Assembly: GCA_041752275.1 (NCBI GenBank)
Contig: JBGSHK010000009.1
Span: 19,156-83,155 of the forward strand
DNA length: 64,000 bases
Direction: 5' to 3'
Source: Minisyncoccia bacterium
GTDB lineage: Bacteria; Patescibacteriota; Minisyncoccia; Phycocordibacterales; CAIZLB01
A program made the translations under genes and the position numbers. Below are positions 41,335 through 58,278 of the stretch, in pieces. Below the pieces are notes generated by a model, which did no database searches, was not told the DNA's origin, and saw only the letters and a list, made by a program, of their open reading frames with translations. Positions within the stretch are counted from its first letter, which is position 1; every line of letters begins with the position of its first letter.

Positions 41335-42168
41335 ATGCAAACAAAAAACCATGAAGAAATATTATTTGAATCAATATATTCCTCTGTTAGACAAAACATG
41401 TTAAGTGTATGTCAAGATATTGATATGGATTTTATTATAGAAAAAATAAGTAAAAGCAAATCTTTTATAAAATCCATATGTTTACTACCATATTGGTTTT
41501 ATACTTGTTTTGAAAACAAAAACAATATAGATATAGAAAATGAACTCTTTATACTCGGAAAAGCCAATCTACAAGCTTGGATAGCATATACTTTATATGA
41601 CTATATAAGAGATGGAAAAATAGAAAAGCAAAAGATAAATATATCTGTATCCATAGCTAACATAATGCATCAAAAATCCATCAAAGATTTTTATAGTTTA
41701 GTTGATTATAACAAAGATAAAATAAACATTATAAATAATCTTTTGAACATTATAGATAGTCATTATTTAGAAAATAAAACAATAGAAGATATACATTATC
41801 ATTTTAAACATATGTGTGATGAGTCATACAAAAAATCTATTGGCGCCTCAATAGTTGCGATAATAGTTGTCTGGCTTTTGGGTTATAAAACAGATAGTAA
41901 TAATCACATAGAGACATATGAGTTTTTTAAAAATTATCTGAATGCAAGACAGCTTTCTGATGACCTAGATGATATGTCAGATGATATAATACATAACATA
42001 TATACACCTGCAACTTTTCTTATGCGAGCACAATACAGCAAAGATTATATGCAAACTATGTTGCGCTCACGTATAGATATGAGTATGCGTTTAGCTTATG
42101 AAGCACTTAGAAATATAGCTTTTTTTGATTATGATAAGTTTATAGAATTGTATGTAAGAGAATGCTGA
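41335..42168 (+). CDS. Hypothetical protein
   Basis: 277-aa ORF with no motif. Confidence 0.35.
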   Translation: MQTKNHEEILFESIYSSVRQNMLSVCQDIDMDFIIEKISKSKSFIKSICLLPYWFYTCFENKNNIDIENELFILGKANLQAWIAYTLYDYIRDGKIEKQKINISVSIANIMHQKSIKDFYSLVDYNKDKINIINNLLNIIDSHYLENKTIEDIHYHFKHMCDESYKKSIGASIVAIIVVWLLGYKTDSNNHIETYEFFKNYLNARQLSDDLDDMSDDIIHNIYTPATFLMRAQYSKDYMQTMLRSRIDMSMRLAYEALRNIAFFDYDKFIELYVREC

Positions 42169-42231: not shown

Positions 42232-42648
42232 TTATTTTTTACAACATTTTTTACACACTCCAAAAAGTTCTAAAGAATGTTTGGTTATAGCATTAAATTT
42301 ACTTGATGATTTTATAACCTTATCTGAAAGATAATCAAGATCACATTCTTCAAAACCTTCAACAAGACCACAATCCGTACAAACAATGTGATGGTGATGA
42401 TGTCCAGACATTTCATAATAAACAGAATCTTTTTGAAGATCGACACGTTTTAGTATGCCAGCATTTTCAAATGAAGTTAAAGTTCTGTATATTGTTACTA
42501 TATTAACTTTTTCTTTTTTAAGTTTTTGGAAAATAAATTCAGCATTTACAGGTTCACAGTCAACAGAAAAAACTTTAAGTATAGCAAGCCTTATAGGCGT
42601 TACTTTAAAACCGTTGGTTTTGAGCATGTTTGACAAGTCTTCTTTCAT
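42232..42648 (-). CDS. Fur-family metalloregulator (Zur/Fur-like)
   Basis: Winged-helix N-terminus (VTPIRLAILKVF), His-rich site SGHHHHHIVCTDCG, and C-terminal CxxC pair CTDCG...CKKCC. Confidence 0.88.
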   Translation of the reverse strand: MKEDLSNMLKTNGFKVTPIRLAILKVFSVDCEPVNAEFIFQKLKKEKVNIVTIYRTLTSFENAGILKRVDLQKDSVYYEMSGHHHHHIVCTDCGLVEGFEECDLDYLSDKVIKSSSKFNAITKHSLELFGVCKKCCKK

Positions 42649-42665
42649 ATATCTTTATAATAATC

Positions 42666-42728
42666 TAAATGCAACTTATTTGCAATTGTTTTTATTTATG
42701 CTATATTAAATGCAACTCAGTTGCAAAC
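42666..42728. promoter_or_regulatory. Two copies of AAATGCAACT; the second forms a perfect palindrome TGCAACT-c-AGTTGCA (candidate Fur/Zur operator in a divergent promoter region)
   Basis: aaATGCAACTtatttgcaatt (42666-42686) and aaATGCAACTcAGTTGCAaac (42708-42728). A TATATT -10-like element abuts the second site. Confidence 0.4.
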
Positions 42729-42773
42729 ACTAATGCGAGCATTGAGTCTGAACAAACAAACTAAAATACCAAC

Positions 42774-42872
42774 ATGAATACCTGCCCTGAATGCGGACAT
42801 CCTGAAACATCCACTACCACTCCATCATGTGAAGATGGATCCTGTGGCTGCGGAGGTGGTTCTGCCGGCTAA
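42774..42872 (+). CDS. Unannotated 32-aa cysteine-rich peptide MNTCPECGHPETSTTTPSCEDGSCGCGGGSAG
   Basis: ATG at 42774, TAA at 42870. Seven Cys/His in a CxxCxH...C....CxC pattern. GC-rich island immediately downstream of the palindromic operator and upstream of the P-loop ATPase and ZIP transporter. Confidence 0.4.
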   Translation: MNTCPECGHPETSTTTPSCEDGSCGCGGGSAG

Positions 42873-42966
42873 TAGGCCATCCCTCAGGGTTGTGCGTCAC
42901 CATGCGTACTTCCCTGTTTTTTATACTCGATTTTTATACACAAATTTACACAAAATATACACACAT

Positions 42967-43788
42967 ATGATAATAGGCTTTCTCGGAAAAGGTGGATCAG
43001 GAAAATCAACACTTGCAACAAAAGTTGTAAACTTTTTGAGTACAGATAAAAACAACACAATCTTGGCCATAGATGCGGACTATAACATGGACTTACTGCA
43101 CAACTTAAACGCAGGTGATGATTTAAACTATCTAGGAACAGATGCAAAGTTTATAATGAAAAAAGTTTTAGAAGTCGATGAAAAAGCATTGTATGCTGAT
43201 ATAGTGTTAGGTGAAAATAATGCAAACAAGTTTTCGATATCAAACCCAGATGATTTTACAAAAACATATAGCAAAAAACTAAAAGAAAATCTATACCTCA
43301 TGGCGGTTGGACCACACTCAGAAAACGTACTCAATGACAAGATGTGTTCTCATGGTTTGGGAGCGTTACTAAAAGCATATTTACCACTTATAAATATAAA
43401 AGAAAATGAATATGTAATCATCGACGAAAAAGCCGGAGTAGACAGTGTTGGAACTGGCATACCTACAGGTTTTAATATGTCCATAATAGTTGTTGAGGCA
43501 ACAGTTTATGGTATAAAAGCAGCAAAGCAAATATCAGACTTGTTAGAAAATCATTATCATCTACCTTTTGCATACATAGTTAACAAAGTTAAATCTGACA
43601 CTGATATATATATGATAAAACAAGAGCTTGATGAAAAATACATAATAGATTATATACCTTTTGGTGAAAACATAGATGATGTGTATGCTGAAAAAATAAT
43701 AAAACACGTTCAAAAATATATACGAGAAAACGGAGACAACATACTTGCACAAAGTATAGCAAAGTTTAAAAACAACAAATCAAAATAA
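42967..43788 (+). CDS. CooC/MinD-family deviant Walker A P-loop ATPase (start trimmed to MIIGFLGKGG)
   Basis: GFLGKGGSGKSTLATK (KGGxGKS/T deviant Walker A) and AIDADYNMDL (compare CooC AIDADPDANL). Cys-Ser-His at MCSHG. The 46 upstream codons of the annotated ORF overlap the peptide gene and are likely not translated. Confidence 0.55.
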   Translation: MIIGFLGKGGSGKSTLATKVVNFLSTDKNNTILAIDADYNMDLLHNLNAGDDLNYLGTDAKFIMKKVLEVDEKALYADIVLGENNANKFSISNPDDFTKTYSKKLKENLYLMAVGPHSENVLNDKMCSHGLGALLKAYLPLINIKENEYVIIDEKAGVDSVGTGIPTGFNMSIIVVEATVYGIKAAKQISDLLENHYHLPFAYIVNKVKSDTDIYMIKQELDEKYIIDYIPFGENIDDVYAEKIIKHVQKYIRENGDNILAQSIAKFKNNKSK

Positions 43789-43792
43789 AACC

Positions 43793-44485
43793 ATGACACT
43801 TATATACATATCAATACTAGCCTTTTTATCAACACTTTTTGGTGGTTACATAGCATTTAAGTACAAAAGGTTTATACACATATTTTCAGGACTAACAGCA
43901 GGTACACTACTTACCTTAGTTTTCTTGGAAATAATACCTGAGGTTATGGAACTTAACGACTCCTCTTTTATATTACTTTCAGTTATAGCTGGTTTTATTA
44001 TTTTCCATATCATAGAAAAAGTTTTTTCACTACACAATCATCATGAACATGATCATCAACATCACAATCATATATCATCTAAAAAAATAGGTGCTTGGGC
44101 TTTGATATTGCACTCGCTTTTTGATGGTATAGCTATAGGTTTAGCATATAACGTATCCCCTGCTTTTGGACTGGCAGTTGCTATAGGTGTTATAGCGCAT
44201 GATTTTTCTGATGGTTTTAACACTGTGACCTTGAGTCATTCTAAAAGATTATTATTTTTAGATTCTATAGCTCCTATGCTTGGTATCATTATCGGATCTT
44301 TTTTTGTTTTTCCTGACAATATCATGAGTGTTTTGTTTGGATTATTTGCTGGTGTACTTTTATATGTTTCTACATCAGACATATTACCTGAAGCCCATTG
44401 TGACAATAAAAAACACATGACTCAAAATCTATTAGCCATGCTAGTGGGGGTTTTATACATATTTCTGGTTGTATATTTAAGATAA
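43793..44485 (+). CDS. zupT: ZIP family metal transporter (ZupT-like)
   Basis: His-rich loop HNHHEHDHQHHNH; signatures HSLFDGIAIG and HDFSDGF. Confidence 0.85.
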   Translation: MTLIYISILAFLSTLFGGYIAFKYKRFIHIFSGLTAGTLLTLVFLEIIPEVMELNDSSFILLSVIAGFIIFHIIEKVFSLHNHHEHDHQHHNHISSKKIGAWALILHSLFDGIAIGLAYNVSPAFGLAVAIGVIAHDFSDGFNTVTLSHSKRLLFLDSIAPMLGIIIGSFFVFPDNIMSVLFGLFAGVLLYVSTSDILPEAHCDNKKHMTQNLLAMLVGVLYIFLVVYLR

Positions 44486-44536
44486 TTACAATAATCAGAA
44501 TAACTGGAACAGTTTGAATAATTTGGCAAAAAAATC

Positions 44537-44630
44537 AGGACGGGAGAACGCTCATTGATCAACTATATGCAGCCCTCCCCAGAATTGCATTAGCGATAAG
44601 CATTCACCCCGTCCTTTGTATTTTGTTTTC
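44537..44630 (+). promoter_or_regulatory. Structured RNA element / terminator with mutually exclusive pairings
   Basis: AGGACGGG (44537-44544) pairs with CCCGTCCT (44608-44615) followed by a T-rich tract. The overlapping GGGAG (44542-44546) can alternatively pair with CTCCC (44575-44579). Confidence 0.35.
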
Positions 44631-44743
44631 TTCACCGAAGACCCCCTCAGTTCTAAGGTAAAGAATAACAATAATTTAAATATTATACCTTCTTAAAATA
44701 AAGTCAAGTATATTGTCATTAGAAAATATAATACAATTATACA

Positions 44744-58155: not shown

Positions 58156-58278
58156 TTATCCTTGTTTTGCGTTTCTTTTGCGATTAGCTTTGTTTACACG
58201 GTATAGATGCTTGCCCCGGCGAACAAGAAACTCACCTTGACGAAGGTCTGCTTTTTTAAGTGAAGATAATAATTTCAT
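58156..58278 (-). CDS. rpmJ: Ribosomal protein bL36, zinc-independent (C-minus, YkgO-type) form; unannotated 40-aa ORF
   Basis: MKLLSSLKKADLRQGEFLVRRGKHLYRVNKANRKRNAKQG. Length and basic pattern match bL36 type B (compare MKVLSSLKSAK...RRRG..YVICK.NP..KQRQG), and it has no Cys. A hairpin AACAAGG-tttta-CCTTGTT overlaps the stop. Confidence 0.55.
   Translation of the reverse strand: MKLLSSLKKADLRQGEFLVRRGKHLYRVNKANRKRNAKQG

Follow-up and report, generated by a model that had tools for sequence, protein, structure and literature searches.

Organization of the Locus

We analysed a stretch of 64,000 nucleotides (nt), hereafter the window, from a Minisyncoccia bacterium of the Patescibacteriota, or candidate phyla radiation (CPR) (contig JBGSHK010000009.1, assembly GCA_041752275.1), and within it a locus where a Fur-family regulator gene lies divergent from an unannotated 32-codon open reading frame (ORF) for a Cys-rich microprotein, which is followed by genes for a CooC-like ATPase and a ZIP-family metal importer. 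The initial annotation of this DNA had recognized the regulator gene, a pair of palindromic operators, the short ORF (the micro-ORF), the ATPase and the ZIP gene, and each of them was recovered at its position; the interpretation given with them was partly supported. On the strength of comparisons with related loci, and with a probability of roughly 45% for the reading as a whole, we proposed that the locus is a metal-starvation operon of this patescibacterium in which the microprotein partners the ATPase in metal handling. The features of the locus, in window coordinates, are as follows.

42232-42648, minus strand: Fur-family metalloregulator of 138 residues (HHHHH-IVCTDC ... CKKC; PF01475, E 4e-24)
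42667-42687, unstranded: operator 1, with the core TGCAACTTATTTGCA at 42670-42684; it holds the -35 element (TTGCAA) of the micro-ORF promoter
42699-42707, plus strand: TG-extended -10 element, TGcTATATT, of the micro-ORF promoter (TTGCAA, 16 nt, TATATT, with TG upstream)
42708-42728, unstranded: operator 2, with the perfect palindrome TGCAACTCAGTTGCA at 42711-42725; it spans the predicted transcription start
42774-42872, plus strand: unannotated gene for the 32-residue Cys-rich microprotein MNTCPECGHPETSTTTPSCEDGSCGCGGGSAG, with the motif CPxCG...C-x-DGSC-x-C
42867-42884, plus strand: predicted small hairpin enclosing the stop codon (GGCU-AAUA-GGCC), then a C-rich spacer, CCATCCCT
42885-42922, plus strand: intrinsic terminator (CAGGG-UU-GUGCGU-loop-GCGUAC-UU-CCCUG, then U6), predicted at -16.6 kcal/mol
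42967-43788, plus strand: CooC-like deviant-Walker-A ATPase of 273 residues, with KGGSGKST, AIDADYNMDL and an invariant C127-S128-H129 (PF01656)
43793-44485, plus strand: ZIP-family metal importer of 230 residues with a His-rich loop, HNHHEHDHQHHNH (PF02535, E 1.6e-21)

These features were compared across about 170 related Patescibacteria loci, cited below by their L numbers, all of which were picked via homologues of the ATPase; the denominators are 162 or 167 loci, or 88 non-redundant ones.

Conserved Operators and the Micro-ORF Promoter

The 64-kb window contains exactly two copies of AAATGCAACT, one at the start of each operator (42667 and 42708); operator 2 carries a perfect 7-1-7 palindrome and operator 1 a copy of it with one mismatch, and no further copy with up to two mismatches was found elsewhere in the window. 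A generic count of such palindrome patterns in the window was not above chance; the case for operator function rests on conservation in relatives. The motif TGCAA-N5-TTGCA, with at most one mismatch, matched 250 times in 817 kb of related loci; 160 of these matches lay within 400 nt upstream of an ATPase start, at least one of them in 111 of 162 loci, and further copies were found upstream of Fur, ZIP and COG0523 genes. The two-operator layout is common to L001, L003, L004, L006, L007, L008, L149, L168, L171 and L172. These comparisons indicated that TGCAA-N5-TTGCA is a conserved operator of the adjacent Fur-family regulator across Patescibacteria, the role in which the palindromes had first been cast, and that ZIP, COG0523, Fur and ATPase genes are members of its regulon. 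Both the 6-5-6 architecture of the motif and its core, TGCAA-N5-TTGCA, recur in the Nur box of Streptomyces coelicolor, tTGCaa-N5-ttGCAA (PMC2691836).

The -35 element TTGCAA (42680-42685) lies within operator 1 and can also act as the -35 of the divergent Fur-gene promoter, and the sequence 'tgctata(t/c)t' around the -10 is kept in relatives. The second palindrome had been described as perfect and as overlapping TATATT; it is perfect, but it begins right after the -10 and abuts it with no overlap.

Neighbouring genes were counted in 167 loci by BLASTP of flanking genes against the window's own proteins, with targets limited to Fur, YibE/F, ZIP, COG0523, DsbA/B, ParB and one 277-residue protein of no known family. 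A Fur-family gene stood in the flanks of 97 loci, and near the ATPase gene we found a YibE/F membrane protein in 48 loci, a ZIP gene in 30 (often with an operator of its own), a COG0523 GTPase with a GCICC motif in 17 (in many cases immediately upstream, with the operator in common) and DsbA/DsbB in 17.

Operator copies also precede genes of other kinds. A family of about 240 residues and of no known function, without a Pfam match, starts with MC..Y.G or MC...FNP, has an internal CCCG or HCCG and lies directly behind perfect operator copies (L125 1779-2501, L127 1665-2444, L032 3932-4651, L054 2160-2936 and, on the minus strand, L090 1172-1954 and L014 1094-1834); it probably belongs to the regulon as well. 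In L016 (1513-2061, minus strand), a perfect operator copy precedes the gene for a small membrane protein that has a His-rich stretch, HTHNHNHTHNHVH, and is probably a further metal-uptake component of the regulon. In L018 and L045, an unrelated-looking protein of 242 residues with HxCxCxCC lies between the Fur and ATPase genes.

The Micro-ORF as a Protein-Coding Gene

Five of the 32 residues of the microprotein are Cys (16%), whereas Cys makes up 0.69% of the window's long ORFs, and the G+C content of the micro-ORF is 53%, compared with 32% for the window. Spacings between the last operator and the start of the ATPase gene fell into two groups over the 88 non-redundant loci. The spacing was at most 60 nt in 60 loci, where control would be direct and the leader short or missing, and 190-315 nt in 16 loci, every one of which has a Cys-rich ORF of 29-42 codons; longer gaps were otherwise filled by a Fur or COG0523 gene.

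Substitutions in the micro-ORF follow the coding frame. Between the window and L168, its closest relative, 12 of 18.7 synonymous sites (proportion pS 0.64) and 10 of 62.3 non-synonymous sites (pN 0.16) differ, and the ratio of non-synonymous to synonymous change (dN/dS) is about 0.12, within an overall range of 0.12-0.4; one Ser codon is TCC in one of the two and AGT in the other. In alignments made from nucleotides only, the differences at codon positions one, two and three numbered 6, 2 and 15, and all 12 gaps over seven pairs were multiples of three. The proposed frame alone was open in all 15 loci tested, most other frames having stops, and the start codon was present in all relatives with the cassette. 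Residues other than Cys are kept within peptide subtypes (CPxCGxP, DGSC, IVRLPA, CGCSGAC). These results indicated that the micro-ORF codes for a protein and that purifying selection acts on it, which agrees, from its constant position to its codon-level constraint, with its first description as a genuine gene.

The micro-ORF has no Shine-Dalgarno site, which is no objection to its translation because such a site precedes only 1 of the 50 long ORFs of the window and many of these genes look leaderless; the A/C-rich stretch before its ATG resembles the stretch before the ZIP gene. In many genes of the window a TATAAT-like -10 ends 5-12 nt before the ATG, a placement that, as predicted from the promoter sequences, implies widespread leaderless translation. 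The micro-ORFs of the window and 14 relatives have a G+C content at third codon positions (GC3) of 0.34-0.71, in every case above the value for the neighbouring ATPase gene (0.17-0.45). This excess may stem from expression-linked codon bias, from RNA structure or from deliberately slow decoding.

A Terminator between the Micro-ORF and the ATPase Gene

The intrinsic terminator at 42885-42922 had been missed in the initial annotation, and it opens a reading of the micro-ORF as a Cys-codon attenuator, weighed below. Its two-tier hairpin was followed through 11 relatives: of 11 pairs, 7 change on both sides, a result that none of 500 shuffles attained, and slid controls collapsed. In L168, L005, L089, L009 and L047, a non-homologous strong hairpin with a U-run occupies the same place. 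The predicted terminator is, by these comparisons, conserved with covarying stems. Upstream of it, the hairpin around the stop codon is predicted in nearly all relatives with differing sequences, and the C-rich spacer, unusual for a genome of 32% G+C, is predicted to have two alternative pairing partners, the G-rich Gly codons and the 5' arm of the terminator.

No second operator was found downstream of the terminator. A separate ATPase promoter was considered and rejected, there being no convincing -35/-10 past the terminator and the sole match of the scan overlapping the start codon; the ATPase start codon of L003 follows the U-run by only about 24 nt. Thus, the ATPase and ZIP genes are probably expressed by read-through from the regulated promoter. 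We also rejected a known structured RNA in the G+C-rich patch: the RNA body showed no more structure than shuffled sequences did (z -0.42), no match at gathering score other than four tRNAs was found when the window was searched against Rfam, and 42640-42980 gave only noise at E up to 10.

Past the terminator, about 70 nt are inserted in L001 (2893-2965), L086, L168/L169 and L172/L173 but not in the window, L171 or L170. The inserted segment contains a GAGGAG box and a perfect inverted repeat of 12 bp (GAAGTGAACATA/TATGTTCACTTC), and may be either a mobile mini-element or another site of regulation. A candidate unannotated small RNA lies at the far end of the operon, between the ZIP and DsbB genes (44529-44707, minus strand). 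Its promoter (-35 TTGACT at 44707-44702, -10 TATAAT at 44687-44682) is near-invariant in seven relatives, and its RNA of about 150 nt is predicted at -55.9 kcal/mol (z -5.9 against shuffles), with a 5' hairpin bearing the G-rich loop GAGGGGG (CCGGGGGG in relatives) and a long 3' hairpin with a U-run that doubles as a bidirectional terminator for the ZIP gene. Within 44529-44707, no Rfam match and no conserved ORF were found. Pairing of this candidate with the micro-ORF transcript was rejected, since the duplex energies did not surpass those obtained with shuffles.

A CooC-Like ATPase with a Cys-x-His Site

Homologues of the ATPase number in the hundreds, every one from metagenome-assembled genomes of Patescibacteria/CPR. 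In an alignment of 32 diverse homologues, GKGGSGK(S/T), DxDxNxD, C127-S128-H129 and D-E-K-A were invariant; L084 has Cys-Asn-His at the Cys-Ser-His position. A full-length profile search of the PDB gave CooC1 (3kje) as the best match (E 1e-15), and an AlphaFold2 model with a predicted local distance difference test score (pLDDT) of 94 had CooC1 as its top Foldseek match (E 7e-12), so that the CooC-like assignment first given to the protein held by both routes. The Cys-Ser-His aligned with the Cys-Tyr-Cys metal site of CooC1 (C112-x-C114).

CooC1 of Carboxydothermus hydrogenoformans, a protein of nickel insertion into CO dehydrogenase, thus resembles the ATPase in its MinD/SIMIBI-type fold, its deviant Walker A motif and the position of its metal site at the dimer interface. 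By alignment and model, however, the ATPase is CooC-like and not a CooC, because the Cys-x-Cys is replaced and the context is one of metal uptake (ZIP, COG0523 and YibE/F genes), not of CO dehydrogenase; no CO dehydrogenase genes were among the called genes listed for the inspected neighbourhoods, no explicit search for them having been made across whole genomes. It belongs to an uncharacterised Cys-x-His (CxH) branch of CooC-like ATPases. In the literature, we located nothing on this module in CPR bacteria, nor on CooC-like ATPases in Zur/Fur regulons.

CooC is accompanied by small accessory metal-binding proteins, CooT and CooJ, to which the peptides described here, of 29-42 residues and Cys-rich, are unrelated. 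UreG with UreE and HypB with HypA are comparable by analogy only, as nucleotide triphosphatases (NTPases) with a Cys/His site at the dimer interface and a small metal-binding partner: the metal site of UreG is Cys-Pro-His, and the N-terminal CxxCGC nickel site of Escherichia coli HypB is similar to the C-terminal ...SCGCGG of the micropeptide, but these proteins are G3E GTPases rather than MinD/CooC-type ATPases, and there is no urease or hydrogenase context here. The Zur-regulated COG0523 GTPases (ZagA, ZigA, YeiR) belong to the same kind of regulon, but they are of a different NTPase family with a CxCC motif, and the window has no COG0523 gene.

The Regulator and the Metal

The regulator scored 85.4 bits against PF01475, compared with a gathering cutoff of 23.1, and its translation shows a His-rich motif and two CxxC pairs, GHHHHHIVCTDCG and CKKCC. 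It had been assigned to Fur/Zur; the Fur family stood, whereas a Zur identity was not established, since the ranking against solved structures was Fur (80 bits), PerR, FurB/Zur and Nur. The NCBIfam equivalog models for PerR and Fur gave about 78 bits, compared with cutoffs of 146-220. An orthologue of Nur was rejected: the box agrees, but of the Ni-site residues of S. coelicolor Nur, His70, His72 and His126 (PMC2691836), only the equivalent of His126 is retained, the SHAH of Nur aligns with KRVD, and the Fur score exceeds the Nur score.

The regulon content (ZIP, COG0523) is Zur-like and the regulator sequence most Fur-like. In Mycoplasma genitalium, nickel uptake is under the sole Fur-family regulator, which may be zinc-responsive (PMC6968530), a case that calls for caution in reading the metal from a family name in reduced genomes. 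The ZIP and COG0523 genes point to zinc, which is probably the metal handled by the operon. The window's ZIP gene itself has a weak match to NCBIfam ZupT. The initial annotation had also linked the regulon to a Cys-less rpmJ; a Cys-less (C-minus type) ribosomal protein L36 is indeed encoded at 58156-58278 on the minus strand (MKLLSSLKKADLRQGEFLVRRGKHLYRVNKANRKRNAKQG), but the link failed, there being no operator upstream of it or nearby. Between the ParB and Fur genes, the ORF of the 277-residue protein (41335-42168, plus strand) has no Pfam or NCBIfam match, and its position is kept in L001, L006-L008, L166, L168 and L171.

A Family of Cys-Rich Micropeptides

Two types of peptide were distinguished. 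Type A has an optional amphipathic N-terminus, CxxC(G/N/Q)xP, 4-9 further residues and C-x(3,4)-C-x(1,3)-C; its members include those of the window, L168 (MNPNNKPGQACPDCGKPTDPTTPSCDDGSCGCGG) and L171, the window peptide having no N-terminal helix and that of L001 having one. Type B, found in L087, L149 and L172, reads M(K).IVRLP...(S)CGCSGACxCG.G. Exchanges of peptide between loci leave the operators and portions of the 5' leader almost unchanged, and such swaps with constant flanks suggest cassette-like replacement. The window peptide combines CxxC and CxC motifs with no aromatic residues, and its CPxCG knuckle and CxC cluster would fit a metal site of 4-5 thiolates.

Searches of protein databases found almost nothing like these peptides. 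Pfam has no family for the window peptide; ten peptides searched at E up to 10 gave noise-level zinc-ribbon matches only, and none of the ten matched the metallothionein Pfam families. A profile search of 5.8 billion proteins gave a single match, an over-extended 50-residue call of the L006 ORF, and no homologue was found among 1.84 billion representative proteins. Metallothioneins (SmtA/BmtA, MymT and the beta-domain motifs of eukaryotes) are likewise small, with 14-17% Cys, CxC/CxxC motifs and small residues between the Cys residues, and the N-terminus of mammalian metallothionein (CSCAAGDSCTCAGSC) is similar to peptides of type B (CSCSGACTCGAG); the peptides described here, however, have only 4-5 Cys and lie under a Fur-type (starvation) operator, not under an ArsR/SmtB regulator that senses excess.

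A fusion of the peptide to the ATPase elsewhere was considered and rejected, the longer homologues having no Cys-rich domain and a few having short C-terminal tails with one or two Cys at the end (CC or FC). ATPase homologues of one lineage (L018 2995-3894, L045 2962-3906 and P0107) end in KKKVFC, KKDCC and KKKVCC, and these could be built-in metal-binding tails where the micro-ORF is missing. Near distant ATPase homologues, DoxX-like membrane proteins (L084 4695-5129, L066 5665-5850, L156 4973-5170 and L083, minus strand) carry a closely micropeptide-like Cys-rich tail, CxxCxDGxCxC, for example SCPNCKDGVCMCK.

Proposed Mechanism and Alternative Explanations

We proposed that the metal-loaded Fur-family repressor would bind the two 6-5-6 operators and cover the -35 and the start site of the TG-extended promoter, as well as the -35 of its own divergent promoter, so that both promoters would be shut. 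Metal shortage would allow transcription, the first product being an RNA of about 200 nt that encodes the microprotein. With 4-5 Cys in a CPxCG zinc knuckle and a CxC cluster, partly zinc ribbon-like and partly metallothionein-like, the microprotein would bind metal. The strong terminator would stop most transcripts, and the read-through fraction would express the ATPase and the ZIP importer. A dimer of the ATPase would hold metal at its invariant Cys-x-His, the position of the Cys-x-Cys of CooC, and the peptide and the ATPase would together form a two-part metallochaperone, in which imported metal is taken up first by the abundant peptide and then delivered to client proteins by the ATPase at the expense of ATP, comparable to CooT/CooJ with CooC, HypA with HypB and UreE with UreG. 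The constant position of the micro-ORF immediately upstream of the ATPase gene argues for a functional pair, which is kept even in L004, where neither a Fur nor a ZIP gene is nearby.

Several observations weigh against this proposal, which we hold tentatively. A very strong terminator between genes for partners is odd unless a skewed stoichiometry is wanted. Most loci of the ATPase family, those with ATPases less than 50% identical to that of the window, have no micro-ORF, which suggests that the ATPase generally does not need one. The peptide is fast-evolving and its types are swapped among loci whose ATPases are 81-85% identical, which is unusual for a specific partner. Finally, the metal is ambiguous: the regulator is Fur-like, the box Nur-like and CooC a nickel protein, while ZIP and COG0523 suggest zinc.

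Alternatively, the peptide could act alone, as a metallothionein- or zinc-ribbon-like product that becomes abundant on derepression and scavenges or buffers metal, or protects thiols. It would then merely have its promoter in common with the ATPase, and the terminator, which is always present in strong form, would make the micro-ORF an almost independent gene. The evidence for coding fits such a buffer equally well, the free exchange of peptide types among close relatives and the lack of a micro-ORF beside the majority of ATPase homologues are in its favour, and the raised GC3 would agree with the codon bias expected under high expression. However, the cassette lies directly upstream of the ATPase gene in 16 of 16 loci, a set selected through the ATPase, including L004 and L047 with their differing surroundings, and nowhere in those loci was it seen beside a Fur, ZIP, YibE/F or COG0523 gene. 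Moreover, a sequestering metallothionein is normally induced by metal excess and not by Fur-type derepression. We regard a stand-alone buffer as possible but unlikely.

Attenuation offers another role for the terminator. In this case the ORF would be mainly a leader peptide, a role that could coexist with a functional peptide: a ribosome stalled on the 4-5 clustered Cys codons for want of Cys-tRNA would leave the C-rich spacer to pair with the terminator 5' arm and permit read-through into the ATPase and ZIP genes, whereas a ribosome that reaches the stop codon would cover the spacer and let the terminator form. Cysteinyl-tRNA synthetase needs zinc, and such a device could therefore report zinc shortage. 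In most loci a short ORF, its stop codon, a C-rich spacer of 12-19 nt and a strong terminator follow one another in a trp-type geometry, the stop-codon hairpin could serve as an anti-antiterminator, and the ATPase gene must be read through the terminator. With the last Cys codon masked, pairing of the spacer with the 5' arm was predicted at -15.3 kcal/mol in L001 and at -7 to -10 kcal/mol in L172, L087, L007, L008, L003 and the window; the raised GC3 would, for a leader, reflect codons that are rare in the genome. The polycysteine leader ORFs of mycobacteria (bioRxiv 10.1101/834739) provide a precedent and, like trp-type leaders, resemble the micro-ORF as short ORFs in which one codon abounds, placed immediately ahead of a terminator or operon, with alternative pairing possible. 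In contrast to amino-acid attenuators, residues other than Cys are under purifying selection here with synonymous sites near saturation, which is unexpected for a pure leader, and the downstream genes are metal-related rather than genes of cysteine metabolism. The antiterminator is not universal either: pairing is negligible (about -2 kcal/mol) in L149 and in L168, whose peptide is closest to that of the window. In addition, the terminator follows the stop codon at anything between 12 and about 60 nt, other codons stand between the Cys codons, and the 5' arm is too invariant to test covariation of an antiterminator. Attenuation as the main function of the ORF is doubtful.

The two ideas could also be combined, in that the cassette would be a translation-coupled metal sensor, the speed of Cys-codon decoding setting read-through, with a peptide that doubles as the partner of the CxH ATPase. 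The translation apparatus would thereby provide a graded second check of zinc sufficiency on top of the Fur-family repressor; we consider this combination improbable. Least probable is a Fur-regulated non-coding small RNA of the RyhB, FsrA or IsrR kind with an incidental or secondary ORF: a Fur-type operator at the promoter of a G+C-rich RNA of about 200 nt, a C-rich tract ahead of an intrinsic terminator, and the fact that MntS of E. coli was at first taken for a small RNA would fit it, but third-position bias, in-frame indels, a coding phase that alone is open, an RNA body no more structured than shuffles, the lack of an Rfam match and the near absence of Shine-Dalgarno targets for a C-rich seed (1 of 50 genes) argue against it.

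Implications

The proposed system of microprotein and CxH ATPase varies known themes, those of the metallochaperone and of the metal-starvation operon; it contains an unannotated microprotein family and the uncharacterised CxH branch of CooC-like ATPases. MntS (42 residues, in the MntR regulon) is comparable in its very small size, in having been missed or mistaken for an RNA, in its expression on metal shortage and in modulating the handling of that metal, but it has no sequence similarity to the micropeptide, lacks a cluster of Cys and is not paired with an ATPase. The micropeptides add a Cys-rich family that gene callers have overlooked, and G+C-rich islands in A+T-rich genomes appear to be a practical route to hidden small genes.

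The CPR, or Patescibacteria, are a huge and almost wholly uncultured group with tiny genomes and many proteins of no known function. For these bacteria, the comparisons suggest that the locus defines a conserved metal-starvation regulon consisting of the operator, the Fur-family repressor, the CxH CooC-like ATPase, ZIP, YibE/F, COG0523 and the CCCG-motif family. If the terminator is governed by the decoding of Cys codons, the cassette would represent a new way to sense a metal. If the peptide hands metal over to the ATPase, the pair would be a metallochaperone of the MinD/CooC class outside the maturation of CO dehydrogenase, and would provide a minimal and easily synthesised model for metal transfer.

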